Source of the DNA: Leptospirales bacterium
GTDB lineage: Bacteria; Spirochaetota; Leptospiria; Leptospirales; Leptonemataceae
Length of the DNA: 48,808 bases
Assembly (NCBI GenBank): GCA_050295715.1
Contig: JBNKQE010000001.1
Location: 1-48,808 of the forward strand
Direction: 5' to 3'
In this document: one piece after another, positions 4,621-18,416 of the stretch
Layout of the letters: each line of letters begins with the position of its first letter
Position numbering within the stretch: position 1 is the first letter of the stretch
Program-made: the position numbers and the translations under genes
The notes under the pieces: model-generated
Database searches by the model: none
Told to the model about the DNA's origin: nothing
The model's input: only the letters and a program-made list of their open reading frames with translations

Positions 4621-4650
4621 CTGACTGATACGAAAATACAATTGTATAAT
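4621..4650 (+). promoter_or_regulatory. Candidate upstream sigma70-type promoter for copA (CTGACT-N18-TATAAT)
   Basis: CTGACT at 4621-4626 and a perfect TATAAT at 4645-4650, 18-nt spacer. If used, it would place the CsoR-like dyad in a roughly 70-nt 5' UTR. Confidence 0.35.
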
Positions 4651-4690
4651 CAACTCCGTTTCACAATCTCTATTTCATTATTATTTTTTC

Positions 4691-4719
4691 TTGCCCTTGA
4701 TACCCTCTGGGGGTATTAT
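4691..4719 (+). promoter_or_regulatory. Candidate proximal sigma70-type promoter for copA (TTGCCC-N17-TATTAT), predicting a leaderless mRNA
   Basis: TTGCCC at 4691-4696, 17-nt spacer, TATTAT at 4714-4719. The ATG at 4726 lies 7 nt after the -10 element and has no Shine-Dalgarno sequence in front of it. Confidence 0.45.
4700..4716. promoter_or_regulatory. CsoR-type copper-repressor operator-like dyad ATACCC-TCTGG-GGGTAT
   Basis: ATACCCTCTGGGGGTAT is a GC-cored pseudo-palindrome in the spacer of the proximal copA promoter. From memory it resembles the TACCC...GGGGTA operators bound by CsoR at Firmicute copZA promoters. Confidence 0.5.
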
Positions 4720-4725
4720 AGTAAT

Positions 4726-6948
4726 ATGAGTTCAACAGCAGAATCCACTCTGTCCGATCCGAACAAAATCAAAGTAATAGAACTATCTATTACGGGAATG
4801 ACATGCGCTGCCTGCTCTGCTCGTATAGAGAAGGTACTGAATAGAAATGATGGTCTTGAAGTTGCCGTTAACCTGGCCTCTGAAAAAGCAAGAGTACTTG
4901 TAAAAGATAACAGTAGCGCCTCCGAAATAATCTCGGCTATTGAAAAAATTGGCTACGGGGCAGAAGAGATCAATCCTGAACGATTGATCGAAGAGCAGGA
5001 GAAAGAAGAGGTCCGAAAGAAAAAGATCTATCACAAAGAGCTTACAATTTTTGCAGTTTCGGCAATTCTGACCCTCCCACTGCTGGCCCAAATGATCCCC
5101 ATGCTGCTTGGAATGAGTTTTGAGCTGAACCGATGGATACAGCTGGCACTGGCAACTCCCGTTCAGTTCATTGTTGGATATCGCTTTTACCGCGGTGCAT
5201 TCAAATCGCTCCGAAGCGGTGCTGCAAATATGGATGTACTCGTGGCACTGGGAACATCCATGGCATATTTTTTCAGTCTGTTTGTTGTCATCCTCAACCT
5301 TACTCTTCATGTGTATTTTGAAGCAGGCGCTGTAGTCATTACGCTTGTACTTCTGGGCAAAATTCTAGAAGCTCGTGCGAAGAGTAAGACATCAAATGCA
5401 ATAAAAGAACTATTACATCTGCAACCCAAAATGGCCCGTGTTGAAATTAACGGTGAAGTTGTCGAAATCCCTTCTCTGCAAATGATGCCCGGTCAAATTT
5501 TTCATGTTCGTCCCGGCGAAAGCTTTCCTGCAGACGGTAAGGTTATTGATGGGACCTCATCTGTGGATGAGGCAATGCTTACCGGTGAAAGCATACCTGT
5601 TGATAAAAGAGATGGAGACAGGATTTTCGCTGGAACAATCAATCAGCAAGGAGCCCTTCGGGTTGAAGCCGAAGGTATTGGATCTGAAACTGCGCTTGCT
5701 GGCATTGTTCGTCTTGTAGAACAGGCCCAGGGTACTCACCCACCCATACAGCGTCTGGCTGACAGGATCTCGGGGATCTTTGTACCGGTGGTTGTCAGTA
5801 TAAGCATTTTAACATTCTCCGGATGGTTCCTGTTTGTCGGTGATTTTACTCTGGCTCTTATTAATGCTGTCGCAGTCCTTGTCATCGCCTGCCCCTGTGC
5901 TCTGGGGCTTGCGACCCCCACAGCCATAATGGTCGGCAGTGGACTGGGTGCAAAATCAGGAATTCTTGTGAGAAATGCCGTAGCTCTGGAGACTGCAGAA
6001 AAAATCAAAACAGTGATTATGGATAAAACCGGAACTCTTACGGAAGGGAAACCTTCTGTAACTGAAATTCTGCCGGCAGCGGGATACTCAGAAGTAGAGG
6101 TCGTCCGGATAGCAGCGAGCCTTGAGCAATCATCTGAACATCCACTCGCACATGCTGTCATGGTATATGCTGATACGCTTCAGATAGTTCCAAATCCTGT
6201 GCAATCATTTCGTTCCGAGACAGGTAGAGGTGTAACCGGTACTGTGAACGGAAAATCAATTGCTCTTGGCTCACCGGATTTCCTGAAAAATAGAAACCCA
6301 TCGCTGGATCTGCCGGAACTGTACAGCGATGTAATTTCTCAAGGAAGAACAATAATTGGAATTGCTGAAGAGGAACATATACTTGGTTATATTGCTATCG
6401 CCGATAAACTGCGAAAAACATCTAAAGAAGCGATATCCCAACTGCGTTCAATGGGAATTAAAACAGTAATGCTGACGGGTGACAATGAACAGACAGCTGC
6501 AGCCATCGCTGCCGAATCAGGAGTTGATGAATTTCGCGCAGGGATTCTTCCCGAAAACAAAGCAAAGGAAGTGGAAAAATTAAGATCTCAGGGTGAGATT
6601 TGCGCCATGGTCGGTGATGGAATCAATGATGCACCGGCTCTTGCCTCGGCAGATGTGAGTTTTGCTATTGGAGCCGGGACAGATATTGCCATCGAAACCT
6701 CTGACATTACTTTAATGAGAAATGACCTGCTGAGTCTTGTGGATGCTATTCGCCTGTCCCGAGCGACACTGGGAAAAATCAGACAGAATTTATTTTTTGC
6801 ATTTATCTACAACATACTGGGTATCCCGCTTGCTTTTTCCGGCATGCTAAATCCGGTCATTGCTGGAGCTGCCATGGCAATGAGTTCCGTCTCTGTTGTG
6901 TCCAGCTCATTATTATTAAAGCGCTGGAAACCAATTACCGGTAAATAA
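4726..6948 (+). CDS. copA: Copper-translocating P1B-type ATPase
   Basis: N-terminal HMA domain GMTCAAC, transmembrane CPC motif (ACPCALGLATP), phosphorylation site DKTGTLT, hinge GDGINDAP. Start moved to ATG 4726 (MSSTAEST) because the ORF-track TTG start at 4642 overlaps promoter elements. Confidence 0.95.
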   Translation: MSSTAESTLSDPNKIKVIELSITGMTCAACSARIEKVLNRNDGLEVAVNLASEKARVLVKDNSSASEIISAIEKIGYGAEEINPERLIEEQEKEEVRKKKIYHKELTIFAVSAILTLPLLAQMIPMLLGMSFELNRWIQLALATPVQFIVGYRFYRGAFKSLRSGAANMDVLVALGTSMAYFFSLFVVILNLTLHVYFEAGAVVITLVLLGKILEARAKSKTSNAIKELLHLQPKMARVEINGEVVEIPSLQMMPGQIFHVRPGESFPADGKVIDGTSSVDEAMLTGESIPVDKRDGDRIFAGTINQQGALRVEAEGIGSETALAGIVRLVEQAQGTHPPIQRLADRISGIFVPVVVSISILTFSGWFLFVGDFTLALINAVAVLVIACPCALGLATPTAIMVGSGLGAKSGILVRNAVALETAEKIKTVIMDKTGTLTEGKPSVTEILPAAGYSEVEVVRIAASLEQSSEHPLAHAVMVYADTLQIVPNPVQSFRSETGRGVTGTVNGKSIALGSPDFLKNRNPSLDLPELYSDVISQGRTIIGIAEEEHILGYIAIADKLRKTSKEAISQLRSMGIKTVMLTGDNEQTAAAIAAESGVDEFRAGILPENKAKEVEKLRSQGEICAMVGDGINDAPALASADVSFAIGAGTDIAIETSDITLMRNDLLSLVDAIRLSRATLGKIRQNLFFAFIYNILGIPLAFSGMLNPVIAGAAMAMSSVSVVSSSLLLKRWKPITGK

Positions 6949-7571: not shown

Positions 7572-8891
7572 ATGGAAGACTCAGTTTCCGTTGATTTGAA
7601 AGAAAAAAATCTGCTAAGAAACCTGAAAAAGGTCTCTGTGCTGTATGTAGAAGATGAAGAATATCTGAGGGAGCGGCTTGCACGTATTCTTGAAAGAAGA
7701 ATTGGAAAACTTTATCTCGCTACCAATGGAAAAGAGGGTCTTGAGCAGTTTAAGAAAATCCAGCCGGACATAGTAATAACCGATATTCGCATGCCTATAA
7801 TGGATGGGCTTGAGATGGCCCGTGAAATTAAGAAAATTGGCGAAGACATTCCAATAATGATCACAACTGCTCATAATGATGAGGAGTTTCTTATTAGAGC
7901 AATAGATGTTGGAATCGATAAGTATCTAAAAAAACCTGTTAACAGAAATGACCTGGTTAAAATGCTGAGTGATGTAGCTCGTTCCATTATACAGCAAAAA
8001 GAAATTGAAGCAAAAAACGAATTTATTCGCATGATTATGGATAACTCTCCCGAGTTTTATCTCATTTGCGATGACCTGGAGATCAGCTATCTTAACAAAT
8101 CAATTTTAAGTTTTTTTGGGTGCCAGACTTTCGAAGATTTCAAAAAACAAAATATAAGACTGGAAAACCATATAGAGCTGGAAGGAGAAGATCAACCTGA
8201 GTCTGAGGGTGGTTTCTGCCAGCAAATAATACAAGTCTCAGATAATGCCGATCAGGATACAATTGTCAGAATGTGGACGATTGACCAGAGCTCCGAAGAC
8301 GCTCGCTCTTATCTATTACGAATCAACAGGCTGCCCGGTCATACGGAAATGCTGGTCATACTTTCCGACGTAACGGGAATCGACAGGCAAAAACGACATT
8401 TTGAAGACCTCTCAACCCGAGATCCTCTGACAGAAATTTTCAATCGCAGCAAATTCAGCACTGAATTGCTAAAAGAAGTGGACAGAGCCAGACGATACGA
8501 AAGACCCATTGCATTGATAATGATGGATATTGACTTTTTCAAAGCAGTCAATGACAATTACGGACACCAGGTGGGCGATGATATACTTCGCGAATGCGTG
8601 GAAATTATTAACCATAATATACGGAAAACTGACTTCTTTGCTCGTTACGGAGGAGAAGAGTTTGTTTTACTATTACCTGAAACCTTGCTCAGTGATGCTA
8701 TTGATCTCGCTGAAAAACTCAGAGAAAAAATTTCTACCCACAAATTTCCTACTATTGATAAATTGACGTGCAGTTTTGGAGTCAGTAAACTGTATGATGG
8801 CGAAGATGGCTTCAAGATGCTTAATCGTGCCGATGCAGCATTGTATAGAGCGAAGAATAATGGAAGAAACCGTGTTGAGGAAGCCGAGTAA
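7572..8891 (+). CDS. Response-regulator diguanylate cyclase (REC, PAS-like, GGDEF)
   Basis: Receiver domain (VITDIRMPIMDG). C-terminal GGDEF domain with an intact GGEEF active site (RYGGEEF). RKTD (RxxD) I-site five residues upstream of it. Confidence 0.9.
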   Translation: MEDSVSVDLKEKNLLRNLKKVSVLYVEDEEYLRERLARILERRIGKLYLATNGKEGLEQFKKIQPDIVITDIRMPIMDGLEMAREIKKIGEDIPIMITTAHNDEEFLIRAIDVGIDKYLKKPVNRNDLVKMLSDVARSIIQQKEIEAKNEFIRMIMDNSPEFYLICDDLEISYLNKSILSFFGCQTFEDFKKQNIRLENHIELEGEDQPESEGGFCQQIIQVSDNADQDTIVRMWTIDQSSEDARSYLLRINRLPGHTEMLVILSDVTGIDRQKRHFEDLSTRDPLTEIFNRSKFSTELLKEVDRARRYERPIALIMMDIDFFKAVNDNYGHQVGDDILRECVEIINHNIRKTDFFARYGGEEFVLLLPETLLSDAIDLAEKLREKISTHKFPTIDKLTCSFGVSKLYDGEDGFKMLNRADAALYRAKNNGRNRVEEAE

Positions 8892-8908
8892 ATTATCCAG
8901 AGACAAAT

Positions 8909-9265
8909 ATGGCATTATTTGAAAGACGAAAATACGAAAGATTTGATTTCCTGAAGGAACTTATCATTTTTGCTGACAACCCTCTTAACAAAAAAGAAAT
9001 TCAGTACTATGCAAAAACTTTAAATATAAGTCGCGGTGGACTTCTTATTTACACAATCGCACAATTTAAAGAAAAAACGAAATGTATTGTTCATTTTCGC
9101 TCAAACAAACTCGAGCTTATTGAGAGAAAAGGGACGATTCTTCGTGTCGTTACAAATGATCGTCCCGACTATCTAAAAGATAGTGAAACTATGTACGCTT
9201 TTGAGTTCAATACTCCGTTCTCCACAGATGATGTTGTTGGAATTATTGAAAGACTTGGAACCTGA
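8909..9265 (+). CDS. Stand-alone PilZ-domain c-di-GMP receptor
   Basis: 118 aa. RxxxR motif (RKYER) near the N-terminus and (D/N)xSxxG motif (NISRGG). Starts 17 nt after the cyclase gene. Confidence 0.8.
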   Translation: MALFERRKYERFDFLKELIIFADNPLNKKEIQYYAKTLNISRGGLLIYTIAQFKEKTKCIVHFRSNKLELIERKGTILRVVTNDRPDYLKDSETMYAFEFNTPFSTDDVVGIIERLGT

Positions 9266-13019: not shown

Positions 13020-13874
13020 TTAAAATCTTGCTCCGGCGCTGAAAAAGATACCCATGGTTCCCATTGTAAAACTGCTGCGTCCCTGAATTGGGGGAATATA
13101 ACTCTGATAATCAGAACCGGTTACACTTTCCGGCGCTATGAGGGTTGTTATATTTTCCGTGATTGGCACAATCCCTCCATTTCCCATTACATAGTATCCT
13201 CCATTCAATCCCTGAACACTTCCGCTCATGGATGAGATATTCAAATAATCCAAAGAGAGTCCGATTCTATAGAATAAATGACGGTTGAACATGCGGCTGA
13301 GCCCGGCTTCCAGTCTTAGTAAAGTTCCAAAATTTGACTCCTGGTAAGCGGATTGTTCCGTATAATTGCCATCCTTGATTCGGTACCCATAGCTCTTCCA
13401 GGATGCATTGGGAGCGTATCCGAACCCTCCTCCAATCTCCGGTCTCCATCCCCAGAGAAATCCCCTGCGCCCTCGTTCAAATGCATAGTGATATGTGAAC
13501 ATAAGATATGTGGCTCGAAAATCCCAGTTTGCATGATACACTTCCGGACCATTTCTATATTCATCAAGAACTACCGAGGGTATGTAATAATTTCCGATAG
13601 CCAACCCAAAATGACTTTCATCACCTATGACACCGGAGAAACGAATCCAGGCCTCCATAACTCCCAGGGCCTTGATTCCATCAGATTTTAATATTGTGGG
13701 CTCAGAATTTGTAAGGGACGATCTGAAATTTTCAATACCAAGGTCAAATTTATCACGAAATCGATAGTCTCCCCGAACCTGAAGCCCCACTTCAAATGGA
13801 ATAGCATGAGAAACACCAAACGGTAAAAATAAAAAGAAAGTGATAAAAAAGGCGGTTATTCGCTTCATAGTCAT
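13020..13874 (-). CDS. Putative outer-membrane beta-barrel protein
   Basis: Signal peptide MTMKRITAFFITFFLFLPFGVSHA. Alternating aromatic/Gly-rich strands. C-terminal ...SAGARF with a terminal Phe. Start set at ATG 13874, preceded by AGGGGA. Confidence 0.7.
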   Translation of the reverse strand: MTMKRITAFFITFFLFLPFGVSHAIPFEVGLQVRGDYRFRDKFDLGIENFRSSLTNSEPTILKSDGIKALGVMEAWIRFSGVIGDESHFGLAIGNYYIPSVVLDEYRNGPEVYHANWDFRATYLMFTYHYAFERGRRGFLWGWRPEIGGGFGYAPNASWKSYGYRIKDGNYTEQSAYQESNFGTLLRLEAGLSRMFNRHLFYRIGLSLDYLNISSMSGSVQGLNGGYYVMGNGGIVPITENITTLIAPESVTGSDYQSYIPPIQGRSSFTMGTMGIFFSAGARF

Positions 13875-13958
13875 TAAATTTCCCCTTTCAGTCCTTTCAT
13901 AGCGAAAGGATAGTGTTGTATACAATTTATCTGACTCCGGGAAGAATGTGGTTACCTA

Positions 13959-16181
13959 ATGAATTTGCTAGAGTTACGTGATAGTTTAAGCTACCCTTAT
14001 ACCGGGCTCATTTTTATTGTCGGACTATTTCTGACAGTACAGCTCAGAGGCTTTCAGATCCCTCATTTTCTACTGGGGGTGAAAATAGCTTCCGGGGCAC
14101 TGGATGCAAGGGGAAAAAAAGGATTGATAGCACCGGGCCGTGCTTTTGCTACAGGGGCTGCATCTTCAATAATGCCAGGTGCGTTGATTGGAAGTATGCT
14201 GGCACTCAGCATTGCCGGTACAGGTATTCTTTTCTGGATCTGGATTACATCACTTTTGAGCATGGCAATTCAATTTGGATCATCCACGCTTTCACTGCGC
14301 TACAGAAAGATTAACGGTCACAAAGACTTCCTTGAAAGTGGACCGGCAATGTTCATTGAGAAGGTTCTGAATGCAAGATGGCTTGCATGGATGATTGCCG
14401 TTCTGATTATAATCCACTCACTCCTTCAGGGGAATGTTCTCATGAGCGCGGTTCTCAATGGAGCAATGGCTGTATCACCGCTTCGCATACCGCCCATTAC
14501 TATCGGTGCAGTTCTATTTGTTATTTTAACTCTGGTCCTGCTTGGTGGTATCAAAAGACTTGGCCTTGTATCGAGCAGAGTCTTCTTACCCGGACTTATT
14601 TTTCTTGGAACATCACTGATCCTTGCCTTAAAAGCATGGTCTCAATACAATGAAGTATCTGTTTTTATAAGCTTTGTTTCATTACTTGATCAGGCACAAA
14701 CCTCATTTATTCCTGAATCCCAAACGGGCTGGGGAAGGCTTTTTTCTGCAATTGCCGTTTACCATGTAATGGTAGAGACCGGACAGGGGAAATTCGCAAG
14801 TATTGCAGGATCTGTAAGAACTGACCATCCAGCCAAACAGGGTCTGGCAAATATGATGGTTCCCTTCATCGAAGGATTTATTGTTACCACTTCTGCATTC
14901 TTACTTTATCATGTATCCGGAACAGGATTTGACCTTTTTAACCCGATTGATTTCGAAGGGACTGATCTGGCCAGCAATACATATATGCAATACTCCTGGC
15001 TGTTCTTTATGGTTGGTCTTTTCGCATTCACACTGGCCGGTATGGGCGGCTGGTCCTTTGCGGGAAGACAGGCTGCGGCGTATCTGGGAGGGCGACGTGT
15101 CGCACAAATGTATCTGATCGTTTATCTGTTAATAATATTCGTTGGCGGATTTGTCTTTCGCTTTGACGATGTCGGGCACCGTGCTCTGGCTCTCAATGCA
15201 ACAATAGTATCAGGCCTGATTACATCTCTTATTCCACTACTATCTCTTCTGTTAATGTCAAAGCATATACGATATGAATACAATAGATATCTCACTCAGG
15301 AACCGGTAGCCTATGAGATATCCAGAGACCTGTTCGTTCTGCTTCTTGTTCTTATGCCCAAAAACCTTGTAAGCAGAATGTTTGGCTGGTTGACATACAT
15401 TCAATTACCGCGATTCCTTATGGTTCCGGTAATACAGGCGTTTGCACGATTTTATAAAATCAACGTGGATGAAGCGGAACTTCAAATTAAAGATTATCGT
15501 TCACTGAACAAGTTTTTTACGAGAGCACTAAAAAAAGGAGCTCGTGTCGTAAATAGAACTGACCGTGTCATAGTATCTCCCGTCGATGGAAGAGTTTCGA
15601 TGTTCGGAGAGATTACCGATGGTAAAATGATTCAGGCAAAGGGAATAAGATATGACCTTGATGACCTTCTGGAATGGCCTGAATTTACTGAAAAGTTTCA
15701 GGGCGGTAAATATATGGTTATCTATCTCAGTCCTCAGGACTACCACCGAATCCATAATCCTCACGAAGGAGATATTGTCGCACTGGGTTATACACCAGGA
15801 AAACTTTTTACAGTAAATCGAGTATCGGTTACAGGTGTTCAGGATCTTTTTCCAAAAAATGAACGTCTAACAAGTTATTTTTCTACGGATTATGGAATGA
15901 TGGCTGTAATCAAAGTTGGTGCAACCAATGTTGGGAGAATTCGAGTAACCTACGACAAACTGATTACGAATCGCTGGGTTCGTTTTCACAGGCGCAAAGA
16001 ATACAAAGAACCGATTTTTATGGATCGTGGCGATGAGCTTGGCCGATTTGAAATGGGTTCTACAGTCATTCTATTATTTGAGAAAGATATGATGGATTTT
16101 GATTCGAGTATTGTAGAAGGACAAAAAGTTCGCTATGGTGAACAGATTGGGTGTTTTCGTTCTACCGGGGAAGACGGTTGA
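13959..16181 (+). CDS. psd: Fusion protein: AGCS-family (sodium:alanine symporter-like) membrane domain plus phosphatidylserine decarboxylase
   Basis: Residues 1 to about 450 are polytopic and colinear with alanine/glycine:cation symporters (AGTGILFWIWITSLLSMAIQFGSSTLSLRYR compared with GGPGAxFWMWxxAxxGMxxKxxExxLAxxYR). The C-terminal roughly 270 aa is PSD (VSPVDGR, YLSPQDYHRIH, self-cleavage motif FEMGSTV). Confidence 0.85.
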   Translation: MNLLELRDSLSYPYTGLIFIVGLFLTVQLRGFQIPHFLLGVKIASGALDARGKKGLIAPGRAFATGAASSIMPGALIGSMLALSIAGTGILFWIWITSLLSMAIQFGSSTLSLRYRKINGHKDFLESGPAMFIEKVLNARWLAWMIAVLIIIHSLLQGNVLMSAVLNGAMAVSPLRIPPITIGAVLFVILTLVLLGGIKRLGLVSSRVFLPGLIFLGTSLILALKAWSQYNEVSVFISFVSLLDQAQTSFIPESQTGWGRLFSAIAVYHVMVETGQGKFASIAGSVRTDHPAKQGLANMMVPFIEGFIVTTSAFLLYHVSGTGFDLFNPIDFEGTDLASNTYMQYSWLFFMVGLFAFTLAGMGGWSFAGRQAAAYLGGRRVAQMYLIVYLLIIFVGGFVFRFDDVGHRALALNATIVSGLITSLIPLLSLLLMSKHIRYEYNRYLTQEPVAYEISRDLFVLLLVLMPKNLVSRMFGWLTYIQLPRFLMVPVIQAFARFYKINVDEAELQIKDYRSLNKFFTRALKKGARVVNRTDRVIVSPVDGRVSMFGEITDGKMIQAKGIRYDLDDLLEWPEFTEKFQGGKYMVIYLSPQDYHRIHNPHEGDIVALGYTPGKLFTVNRVSVTGVQDLFPKNERLTSYFSTDYGMMAVIKVGATNVGRIRVTYDKLITNRWVRFHRRKEYKEPIFMDRGDELGRFEMGSTVILLFEKDMMDFDSSIVEGQKVRYGEQIGCFRSTGEDG

Positions 16182-17023
16182 AATTTGTCGTTTTAGACGA
16201 CACCCTGGTTAATGAAAATGAAGTTTCCATTCCTCTTACAGACAGAGGATGGAGATTTGGAGATGGAGTTTTTGAAACCATCCGTCTTGATCATGGACTA
16301 CCCTGGCAGTGGAAACTTCATATGGAGAGACTGGAACGCGGAAGACTGGCTCTGCGGCTTCCTGGATATGAGTTTCCTTTAGATACTCTTGCCAGGCAAC
16401 TCATATCCGCAAATGGCATTTTAGATGGATTTATTCGTATTGCACTAACACGCGATGCGAAAAGTGCCGGATATATTCCCTTGATCGAACATCAAAAAAT
16501 TCGCTTGATCATGGAGACAATCCCTCTTGCACCCTACGATAACGAAGCAAAAAAACTCAAATTATCTTCCTGCACGAAAATACCATTGAGCTCCCTGCCT
16601 GTATCAGTCAAGACCATGCAGGGTGTAAATTCTATGCTTGCCAGGTGGGAAGCAATTGAGTCGGATTGTTATGATGCATTGCTCCTTACAGTAGATGGAT
16701 ACATAAGTGAAACATCGTCAGGAAATATTTTCTGGATAAAAGACGAGCATATATACACACCTTCCGAAGATTGTGATATATTACCAGGTACGGTCAGATC
16801 AGCGATAAAGCGGCTCAGTCCCTGGCAAATTCATGAAGGAAAGTATAGAACTCCGGATCTGGAAAAAGCTGATCATGTTTTTATAACGAATGTCGCCCTG
16901 GATGCTCTGGATATAAGTACAATTGACGGTGTAGCAAACACATTCTGCGAGTCCCACACAATTACGAAAACTCTGAGAGAACTTCTCGTGCAGGACAGAA
17001 AAATTCATGCCGGATTCTTCTAA
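16151..17023 (+). CDS. pabC: Class IV aminotransferase-fold protein, probable aminodeoxychorismate lyase
   Basis: GDGVFET and ETSSGNIFW motifs. Sits directly upstream of, and overlaps, pabB. The GTG at 16151 overlaps psd by 31 nt. An in-frame TTG at 16178 overlapping the psd TGA is an alternative start. Confidence 0.75.
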   Translation: MFSFYRGRRLKFVVLDDTLVNENEVSIPLTDRGWRFGDGVFETIRLDHGLPWQWKLHMERLERGRLALRLPGYEFPLDTLARQLISANGILDGFIRIALTRDAKSAGYIPLIEHQKIRLIMETIPLAPYDNEAKKLKLSSCTKIPLSSLPVSVKTMQGVNSMLARWEAIESDCYDALLLTVDGYISETSSGNIFWIKDEHIYTPSEDCDILPGTVRSAIKRLSPWQIHEGKYRTPDLEKADHVFITNVALDALDISTIDGVANTFCESHTITKTLRELLVQDRKIHAGFF

Positions 17024-18350
17024 AAGCGATTACAGCATAATACACTCACCTCTGACTCCTTTAGATATAGCCTTTCGTGTTACGGAAGGAGAGTCCGGTT
17101 ACGCATTTTTACACTCAGGTTCTCAAGGAAATTCAAGCGAAGGAGTATCCATTATTGCACTTCGCCCCGAAATGATTTATGAAGGCGAGAATTTTTCTGA
17201 TTTCGAATCTATATTAAAAAATAACCTGAGCAATTCTACAACTATAATTGGATATATTGGATATGAACTGAAAAATTCTCTTGAGATACTGCCTGTTGAT
17301 GAAGAGAGTTATATTGAAACTCCTGTATTTCGACTCATACAGTATTCCTGTCTTCTTGAATTATACCCCGAAAAGAACGAAATACTTGTATTTACAGAAG
17401 ACGCATCTCTCCGGCAAACCGTTGAAAAAAGAATCAATACGGAAGCGAAATCTGCGAACTCATTAAATGCATACGATGATGATTATTTTCCCGGCATAAA
17501 AGAACTCCATTCAAACTTTACGGGCAAAAGTTACAAAGATGCTGTTGAAAGAGTTCGCCAGCATATAATCAGAGGAGATATTTATCAAGCGAACCTGACC
17601 CGTAAATTTACAGGCAGGACAACCGATATCGTTGATCCTCTGATCCTTCACGCACGCCTTCACGATGCGAGTCCCGCACCCTACTCTGCAGTGCTCAAAT
17701 ATGAGGACTTCAGTGTGGTATCATCCAGTCCGGAATTATTCCTAAACATACGGGGAAATAATATAACAACGGAACCAATCAAAGGCTCCATATCCGCGAT
17801 TCCTGGTAACAATCAAGAAAATGCAAACGCGAAACAAATCTTAAAAAACAGCACAAAGGATCGCGCTGAAAACCTTATGATTACCGATCTTATGCGAAAT
17901 GACCTGGGACGTTTCTGTAATATCGGAAGTATTGTTGTTGATGACATTTTTCGCGTGAAGTCATACCCCACAATCCATCATATGAGTTCTGTAATTAAAG
18001 GAGTATTAAAACCGGGTACTACAATTGCTGATGTTGTAGCATCAACTTTCCCGCCTGGATCGATGACAGGCGCACCAAAAATACGGGCAATGAAAATATG
18101 CTCCGAAATGGAAAAAGTGAAACGCGGGGTTTACAGCGGTGCTCTCGGTTACATTTCCGGCTCTGAGAAATTATCTCTGTCGGTCGTAATTCGCACTATC
18201 CTTGTTTCTCAAAACAAATTTGAATTCCAGGTAGGCGGAGGGATTGTATATGACTCCACACCTGAAGGAGAGTGGGAAGAGACTCTGGTTAAAGCACGCG
18301 GATTATGCAGTGCACTTGGAATCGATCCGGCTCGATTACGGGATCTATGA
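17007..18350 (+). CDS. pabB: Aminodeoxychorismate synthase component I (chorismate-binding enzyme)
   Basis: Chorismate-binding family motifs: SSPELFL, PIKGS, SMTGAPKIRAM, GGGIVYDS. Confidence 0.85.
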   Translation: MPDSSKSDYSIIHSPLTPLDIAFRVTEGESGYAFLHSGSQGNSSEGVSIIALRPEMIYEGENFSDFESILKNNLSNSTTIIGYIGYELKNSLEILPVDEESYIETPVFRLIQYSCLLELYPEKNEILVFTEDASLRQTVEKRINTEAKSANSLNAYDDDYFPGIKELHSNFTGKSYKDAVERVRQHIIRGDIYQANLTRKFTGRTTDIVDPLILHARLHDASPAPYSAVLKYEDFSVVSSSPELFLNIRGNNITTEPIKGSISAIPGNNQENANAKQILKNSTKDRAENLMITDLMRNDLGRFCNIGSIVVDDIFRVKSYPTIHHMSSVIKGVLKPGTTIADVVASTFPPGSMTGAPKIRAMKICSEMEKVKRGVYSGALGYISGSEKLSLSVVIRTILVSQNKFEFQVGGGIVYDSTPEGEWEETLVKARGLCSALGIDPARLRDL

Positions 18351-18388: not shown

Positions 18389-18416
18389 AAAAAACCGGTT
18401 CAAAACCGGCTTTTTG
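18389..18416. terminator. Bidirectional intrinsic terminator between pabB (+) and the 5S rRNA gene (-)
   Basis: AAAAAAACCGGTTCAAAACCGGCTTTTT: a short CCGGTT/AACCGG stem flanked by an A-run and a T-run. Read on the minus strand, the stem is followed by eight T residues. Confidence 0.5.

Follow-up and report, generated by a model that had tools for sequence, protein, structure and literature searches.

A degenerate sodium:alanine symporter-like domain fused to phosphatidylserine decarboxylase in a Leptospirales bacterium

Introduction

Phosphatidylethanolamine (PE) is the dominant membrane phospholipid in most diderm bacteria, and phosphatidylserine decarboxylase (PSD, the product of psd) is generally its only source. 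In a stretch of 48,808 nucleotides (nt) from a Leptospirales bacterium (GenBank assembly GCA_050295715.1, contig JBNKQE010000001.1; the whole stretch is called the window below), this enzyme is encoded in one frame with a polytopic domain related to the sodium:alanine/glycine symporters of the AGCS family. The locus raises the question of what a carrier domain does on a lipid-synthesizing enzyme, and whether it still transports anything. We find that the fusion is real and shared by the whole sampled Leptospira class, that the decarboxylase keeps its catalytic residues and that the carrier domain keeps its fold while the canonical Na+ and carboxylate sites are replaced. We incline, with modest confidence, to the reading that the PSD is tethered to a re-purposed pseudo-carrier scaffold without Na+-coupled alanine/glycine uptake, a view drawn from residue mapping.

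The fusion gene and its junction

The gene is a single open reading frame (ORF) of 740 amino acids (aa) plus stop, with an ATG start and zero internal stops in both the ORF listing and the translation. Pfam recognizes Na_Ala_symp at aa 53-448 (139.4 bits, E 2.5e-40, profile positions 9-383 of 392, cut-off 24) and PS_Dcarbxylase (PF02666) at aa 516-731 (208.7 bits, E 8.8e-62, profile positions 1-197 of 198, cut-off 22), without overlap between the two. The original prediction of an in-frame fusion is thereby confirmed, as is its assignment of both halves in the profile search that it had proposed. The C-terminal part scores 211.6 bits against NCBIfam PS_decarb TIGR00163, above the equivalog cut-off of 111.75, and the N-terminal part scores 163.8 bits against NCBIfam agcS TIGR00835, below the subfamily cut-off of 272.65. 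The full-length AlphaFold2 model has a predicted local distance difference test score (pLDDT) of 90.4, falling to 66-71 in the linker, and a predicted template modelling score (pTM) of 0.78. A predicted complex of the N-domain (1-450) with the PSD module (451-740), with a 116-row alignment for each, gave 0.00 in both runs (mark 0.32) and is used as evidence neither way. The features of the gene are as follows; TM denotes a transmembrane helix.

13959..16181, forward strand: whole fusion ORF, AGCS-derived domain followed by the PSD proenzyme (ORF listing, translation, Pfam)
14115..15302, forward strand: AGCS-derived LeuT-fold polytopic domain, Pfam aa 53-448 (NCBIfam agcS aligns aa 15-444; profiles, Foldseek)
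14172..14198, forward strand: degenerate TM2 unwound segment, aa 72-80, with M72 P73 G74 A75 against the canonical G77 T78 G79 N80
14769..14792, forward strand: TM7 unwound segment, aa 271-278, with M271 (S274 in AgcS), E273 as the kept E276, and K278 as a clade-specific Lys (S281 in AgcS)
14871..14873, forward strand: codon of E305, in place of the AgcS Na+ ligand D308
15051..15053, forward strand: codon of W365, the kept cytoplasmic-gate Trp (AgcS W370)
15303..15503, forward strand: linker and the PSD's own N-terminal amphipathic helices, aa 449-515 (Escherichia coli PSD alignment, model)
15504..16151, forward strand: PSD catalytic core, aa 516-731, with D543, Y589, D594, H596 and H599 (Pfam, Foldseek)
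16056..16064, forward strand: G700-S701-T702 autocleavage motif (invariant in 132 fused proteins)

An artefact, in which adjacent agcS and psd genes were merged by a sequencing or assembly error near 15300-15350, is hardly credible. It is an a priori possibility only, as the genome is a draft of 4.99 Mb in 672 contigs, and it is contradicted by the same unbroken frame in more than 130 independent protein clusters, including complete chromosomes of 3.4-4.1 Mb, and by the linker residues P467, S472, G476 and P484, which are invariant across the fused family. Because the same single frame is common to independent assemblies and complete chromosomes, we regard the junction as real; the frameshift or stop that the original prediction had named as a possible refutation is not supported.

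The decarboxylase module

The PSD proenzyme is complete and its catalytic residues are intact, with the motifs quoted by the original prediction at aa 539-545 (VSPVDGR), 593-599 (QDYHRIH) and 699-703 (MGSTV). Its last 286 residues align to the stretch of E. coli PSD that begins at residue 9 and ends with the cleavage Gly (E 5e-43), with 34-36% identity over the beta chain. The roles of D90, D142-H144, S254 and the phosphate-binding residues in E. coli PSD have been described, as have its three N-terminal amphipathic helices, which give monotopic anchoring and are required for maturation (PMC7952604). In the window protein D543, D594 and H596 correspond to D90, D142 and H144 (maturation and catalysis), H599 to H147, and Y589 and V619 to the phosphate ligands Y137 and V167; all are invariant in the 116-132 fused proteins compared. 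T618 stands in place of the phosphate ligand S166, a conservative change. The cleavage pair G253-S254 is found as G700-S701, and G700-S701-T702 is invariant in 132 fused proteins. The modelled module matches E. coli PSD 7CNX/7CNW with Foldseek TM-scores (by target) of 0.87-0.90, and model helices 453-465, 468-480 and 485-498 are the PSD amphipathic helices, aligned with E. coli residues 9-60.

The fusion gene is the only match to PF02666 in the genome, which also encodes a homologue of PssA-type phosphatidylserine (PS) synthase (106.4 bits, or 107.3 with neighbouring matches; cut-off 107). Given this PssA homologue, the lack of any other Psd homologue and the retained catalytic and phosphate-binding residues, the fusion gene is predicted to encode the sole housekeeping PS-to-PE enzyme of the organism.

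The original prediction had also considered a decarboxylase acting on something other than PS. Such a pyruvoyl decarboxylase might, by analogy with PsiD-type and arginine decarboxylases, use a free amino acid delivered by the carrier. The fusion partner is indeed an amino-acid carrier domain, and distant structural matches to PsiD tryptophan decarboxylase and a fungal arginine decarboxylase exist. The PsiD-type matches are weak, however (TM-score 0.44), and the identity to E. coli PSD extends over the whole beta chain, lipid-binding helices included. The score above the PS_decarb equivalog cut-off, the retained phosphate and carboxyl-recognition residues (Y589 and V619 among the former) and the absence of any other PSD candidate from this PssA-encoding genome all point the same way, and we consider a non-PS substrate very improbable.

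The carrier-like domain

The N-terminal domain is colinear with AgcS of Methanococcus maripaludis over about 400 residues (HMMER, E 2.3e-25), and its model matches AgcS 6CSE with Foldseek TM-scores (by target) of 0.81-0.82 over 442-458 columns. The AGCS ancestry proposed by the original prediction is thus borne out by both the Pfam match and the AgcS-like fold. AgcS residues were mapped by the HMMER alignment and by a MAFFT alignment of 100 sequences, among them the canonical AGCS of the same genome. The AgcS crystal-structure paper, which defines the Na+ and substrate ligands, describes 11 TMs, of which TM2 and TM7 correspond to TM1 and TM6 of LeuT.

Most of these ligands are replaced in the window protein. 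The Na+ ligands N80, S274 and D308 are A75, M271 and E305, and the carboxylate contacts G77/T78 (backbone) and Q170 are M72, P73 and M162, where the T78P change removes a backbone NH at the carboxylate site. The TM2 unwound segment has accordingly lost the Asn that binds Na+ as well as its backbone contacts to the carboxylate, in line with the divergence of the GTGNIAG segment (IMPGALIGSM at 71-80; N80, G77 and T78 replaced) that had been noticed earlier. The hydrophobic pocket I165, F273 and T366 has become Q157, V270 and G361. The amine ligand and gate pair of AgcS, E276 and W370, is kept as E273 and W365. This residue pattern argues against Na+-coupled alanine/glycine transport by the window protein.

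Several residues of the derived domain are strongly conserved among fused proteins. E273 is kept in 94/95 to 99/100 of them and W365 in 99/100. Position 278, a clade-specific feature, holds Lys in 89 and Arg in 5 of 100 fused proteins, and position 305 holds Glu in 78 and Gln in 11 sequences of the fused-protein alignment. The near-invariant polar residues of the membrane core comprise E273, K278, R287-T288-D289, K293, E305/Q and W365, and the glycines of both unwound segments (TM2, TM7) are near-invariant as well.

Elsewhere in the same genome a stand-alone AGCS of about 454 aa (contig C29, 9720-10895; locus L002) scores 487 bits against PF01235 and has all functional residues canonical, compared with 139 bits for the fused copy. 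Hydropathy counts of transmembrane segments across the family were too noisy (14-21 segments even for stand-alone AGCS) and were used only for the length of the N-terminal part, which is about 450-485 aa throughout the fused family. Precomputed annotations of the window protein also list PF27523.

Distribution of the fusion

Across the phylum, 401 genomes were searched in six frames. Family f2, which neighbours the window's family within the order and is Leptospiraceae according to named protein hits, has the fusion in 75/75 genomes, with a single match in each and frames of about 742-826 aa. Elsewhere in the class, 4/4 genomes from other families have it, in frames of 780-801 aa. The Psd frames of the remaining spirochaete families are about 283-326 aa long and match only residues ~455-735, that is, they are stand-alone. 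Since the fusion occurs in all of these genomes of the class and the Psd is stand-alone elsewhere in the phylum, the AGCS-PSD architecture is therefore a class-level trait of the Leptospira class; this answers the survey across Spirochaetes that the original prediction had suggested.

In a protein search, more than 100 full-length clusters carry both Pfam domains at 35-59% identity, mostly from Leptospira and Leptospiraceae, and the best match of the window protein is only 59% identical to it. No fused protein from outside Spirochaetota is named among these matches. A partial protein of 514 aa from a metagenome-assembled genome (MAG) labelled 'Hydrogenedentota' is 57% identical to the carrier part of the canonical clade described below, but is truncated. 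Of the Leptospiraceae genomes sampled, 20/20 have no Na_Ala_symp homologue besides the fused copy.

The claim that there was no described example is wrong at the database level. RefSeq and UniRef names such as 'sodium:alanine symporter family/phosphatidylserine decarboxylase [L. interrogans]' and 'bifunctional phosphatidylserine decarboxylase and sodium/alanine symporter [L. ryugenii]' already describe the two-domain architecture. A full-text literature search found no paper describing the AGCS-PSD fusion; the sole paper found linking Leptospira and PSD notes just the existence of the enzyme in L. biflexa.

In five genomes of the window's own family (G405, G409, G411, G412 and G423; loci L018-L022) Psd stands alone at about 290 aa, and the adjacent ORFs include no polytopic one. 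A quick PSD tree places these five outside the fused cluster, on long branches of up to 6.7 substitutions per site. We considered them as evidence that the N-domain is dispensable and rejected this, as domain loss, a foreign psd (xenologous replacement) and mis-binning are all compatible with the pattern.

Origin and decay of the carrier

Twelve AgcS sites were scored across 132 fused proteins, which fall into four groups, A-D. In group A (21 clusters, 773-890 aa) all twelve sites are canonical or nearly so, and 13/21 clusters are identical to stand-alone AGCS at these sites; the carrier is 47-50% identical to alanine/glycine:cation symporters of Bacillaceae and scores 436 bits against Na_Ala_symp. 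Group B, which includes a protein named Turneriella sp., shows the pattern N-A-V-W-Q-V-A-E-I-Y-A-W, in which N80, S274 and D308 are lost and bulky Trp and Tyr enter the pocket (I165W, D308Y). Groups C and D (Leptospiraceae and the window's family) have N80 replaced by A/S/T, Q170 by P/N/M, S281 by K/R and D308 by E/Q.

Quick maximum-likelihood trees were computed with support from the Shimodaira-Hasegawa-like approximate likelihood ratio test (SH-aLRT). In the PSD-domain tree all fused proteins are separated from every stand-alone Psd (SH-aLRT 90), and group B lies inside group A, which comprises the other families of the class. The N-domain tree has long branches leading to group B (3.0 substitutions per site) and to C/D. 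The clustering of the fused PSDs, the nesting of B inside A and the long N-domain branches to B and to C/D agree with a single ancient event that joined a working AGCS to psd, after which the carrier site decayed independently at least twice.

The enzyme stayed constant over this series: PS_Dcarbxylase scores are steady at 197-211 bits in all fused members tested, while Na_Ala_symp scores run through 436, 184, 139, 122, 92, 90, 63 and 46 bits to undetectable in two. Several genomes of the window's own family have a fused carrier domain of merely 30-52 bits. Two proteins without a Pfam-detectable Na_Ala_symp, P0110 (705 aa) and P0116 (663 aa), have N-terminal parts of about 440-480 aa, which are candidate end-points of decay or may be replacements by another domain. 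Three further proteins (P0139, P0140 and P0157, 447-510 aa) have the length of a stand-alone AGCS, and the N-domain tree nests them among the canonical fused proteins; they may be contig-end fragments or secondary splits.

Another divergent member, P0089 (locus L013, contig G422:C8; an unusually long open frame of 1024 aa), has jointly lost E273, K278 and E305, which are A, T and A there. Its pocket may be fully apolar, and it possibly has an extra N-terminal extension. This joint loss, a single case, hints that the three residues may form one charge network.

Selection on the derived domain

Ratios of nonsynonymous to synonymous substitution rates (dN/dS) were estimated by the Nei-Gojobori method for eight congeneric Leptospiraceae pairs with dS below 1.5, mostly near saturation. 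The median is 0.052 for the N-domain and 0.018 for the PSD, indicating purifying selection on both domains. Dividing the mean pairwise identity of the N-domain by that of the PSD gives 0.93 for group A and values of 0.61-0.78 for the derived groups.

Possible roles of the carrier domain

We propose the following sequence for the scaffold that we favour. The protein would go back to one ancient event, in the ancestor of the Leptospira class, by which a genuine AGCS gene became joined to psd. Its proenzyme would cleave itself at G700|S701, turning S701 into the pyruvoyl group and leaving a beta chain of aa 1-700, carrier domain included, and an alpha chain of aa 701-740; the mature enzyme would convert PS made by PssA into PE at the cytoplasmic face of the inner membrane. 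Being covalently continuous with an 11-TM LeuT-fold domain, the beta chain would be permanently integrated into the inner membrane. Since the last helix in the canonical AGCS topology should end in the cytoplasm, the PSD and its amphipathic helices would lie on the correct, cytoplasmic side. In a carrier without Na+ and alpha-carboxylate sites, alanine/glycine import has most likely ended, and selection would most likely maintain the domain in a structural or organisational role, as the enzyme's scaffold.

Several observations weigh against this scaffold. The PSD has membrane-binding helices of its own, so that an extra anchor is not obviously needed. The strong purifying selection on the carrier domain, together with its kept buried polar residues, exceeds what a passive anchor would need and is compatible with a working binding pocket. 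The sole-Psd status is given for a genome that is 89.7% complete, which leaves some strict room for a second Psd. The original prediction had suggested a non-transporting anchor; its non-transporting part agrees with the replaced Na+ and carboxylate ligands and with the reading we favour, but because dN/dS is about 0.05 the derived domain appears to be more than a passive anchor.

The same constraint would also suit a truly bifunctional protein, the N-domain being a still active carrier with altered coupling and/or substrate and the PSD working independently at the C-terminus. One possibility is a Na+-independent carrier in which the ammonium group of K278 replaces Na+, another an amine carrier that no longer requires an alpha-carboxylate. 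A basic side chain can stand in for Na+ in other LeuT-fold carriers such as ApcT, which we take as a lead only. Besides the low dN/dS of the N-domain, the near-invariance of E273, K278/R, R287-T288-D289, E305/Q, W365 and the unwound-segment glycines agrees with this alternative, as do the confidently modelled AgcS-like fold and the status of the fused copy as the only Na_Ala_symp homologue in the sampled Leptospiraceae. The twelve canonical or nearly canonical sites of the sister clade moreover make bifunctionality a likely ancestral state. The derived proteins, however, lack each of the three carboxylate contacts as well as two of the three Na+ side-chain ligands, and T78P deletes a backbone NH; the same site decayed independently in the Turneriella-like clade, by different and bulky replacements; the P0089 lineage lacks E273, K278 and E305 together; and in some family members the domain is beyond Pfam detection. 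The window genome also keeps a separate canonical AGCS. We therefore regard an active carrier as unlikely here, though it deserves to be kept in mind.

A sensing or handling module appears less probable still. Its remodelled pocket would bind a small amine or a lipid head-group (that of PS or of PE), and the module would either control how PSD matures or works or pass PS on to the active site. This reading would suit the retention of the amine-binding Glu, the loss of the carboxylate-binding elements and the gain of a conserved Lys, and likewise the strong purifying selection on the N-domain. The pTM of 0.78 hints that the two domains of the model may have a defined mutual arrangement, although the linker pLDDT is merely 66-71. 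Regulation of PSD maturation by anionic lipids has been described in Plasmodium (PMC10172927) and may offer a precedent. Against such a module, LeuT-fold pockets are not known to have a lateral opening towards the bilayer. The more specific idea that the AGCS-derived domain binds an ethanolamine or serine head-group (or free ethanolamine) and is coupled to the PSD as feedback on PE synthesis or as substrate hand-off is speculative, and we give it a small chance. If true, it would mean that a pseudo-transporter has turned into a regulator of lipid synthesis in all Leptospira, pathogens included.

Significance

In the sampled genomes of the Leptospira class, which includes the agents of leptospirosis, the only Psd is joined to an uncharacterised LeuT-fold carrier domain. 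The architecture itself was already recorded and named in databases and is universal in sampled Leptospira genomes; new here are the series from canonical to degenerate carrier, the two independent decays that it suggests and the strong purifying selection on the degenerate domain. As a gene fusion this is unsurprising; as part of an essential lipid enzyme, in a class containing pathogens, it has been left unexplored. The natural series leads from a canonical carrier (436 bits) through a remodelled pocket to an unrecognisable domain, with the enzyme unchanged throughout, and thus provides a clean system for the change from transporter to pseudo-transporter and for the service that such a domain may render to a monotopic lipid enzyme. 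It also calls for caution in annotating Leptospirales proteins as 'bifunctional ... sodium/alanine symporter', and identifies a clade suited to examining bifunctionality.

Neighbouring genes and other features of the window

Downstream, the psd fusion overlaps by 31 nt with a gene for a class-IV aminotransferase (PabC-like, 290 aa, GTG start; 16151-17023), which in turn overlaps by 17 nt with a chorismate-binding PabB-like gene (17007-18350); a terminator-like hairpin follows at 18395-18409. The arrangement looks like a psd-pabC-pabB operon in which none of the partners is lipid-related. The opposite strand upstream encodes a 301-aa protein and a Y-family DNA polymerase. No Pfam family was found for the 301-aa ORF (13020-13925, reverse strand), which is divergent from the psd fusion; with its signal-peptide-like N-terminus and C-terminal aromatic residue (…GARF), it may be an outer-membrane beta-barrel.

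Two other regions were read by eye. At 7572-9265 a protein with a response-regulator receiver and a GGDEF-type domain (439 aa) is directly followed by a 118-aa ORF with PilZ-like motifs (RRKYERF ... ISRGG), and the pair may be a cyclic di-GMP synthase and its receptor. A 768-aa P-type ATPase at 4642-6948 (forward strand), with an N-terminal heavy-metal motif GMTCAACS and a CPC motif, is probably a copper exporter.

Comparison with known systems

The carrier domain is best compared with AgcS of M. maripaludis (PDB 6CSE; TC 2.A.25, PF01235), with which it shares the gate pair E276/W370, the TDHP motif and the glycines of the unwound TM2 and TM7. It differs in having Ala, Met and Glu for the Na+ ligands and Met, Pro and Met for the carboxylate contacts, in its NCBIfam agcS score below the cut-off and in the enzyme fused to it. 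The PSD module shares D90/D142-H144-S254, the phosphate-binding Tyr, the GST motif and all three amphipathic helices with E. coli Psd (PDB 7CNW/7CNX/6L06; PF02666, TIGR00163). The latter is a monotopic protein of 322 aa, whereas the beta chain of the fusion has about 450 extra N-terminal residues, which form the polytopic LeuT-fold domain.

Among fused proteins, the canonical-type fusions (the P0119 group, 773-890 aa, from 'Spirochaetia bacterium' MAGs of families f3-f5 of the same class) have the same architecture, and their PSDs cluster with that of the window. Unlike in the window protein, their carrier is canonical or nearly so at all 12 sites and reaches 436 bits, and they are probably truly bifunctional. 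The Leptospira proteins annotated as bifunctional or as 'archaetidylserine decarboxylase' (~713-750 aa) share the architecture, the length and the degenerate pattern (typically L-P-A...P...S-E-K-E-S-W) and are 40-44% identical to the window protein over 96-99% of its length. The window protein comes from another family of the same order and differs in S274 being replaced by Met, in Q170 being replaced by Met rather than Pro, and in its Na_Ala_symp score of 139 against 160-200 bits. The fusion family is known but uncharacterised, and the window protein adds to it a new and rather divergent member.

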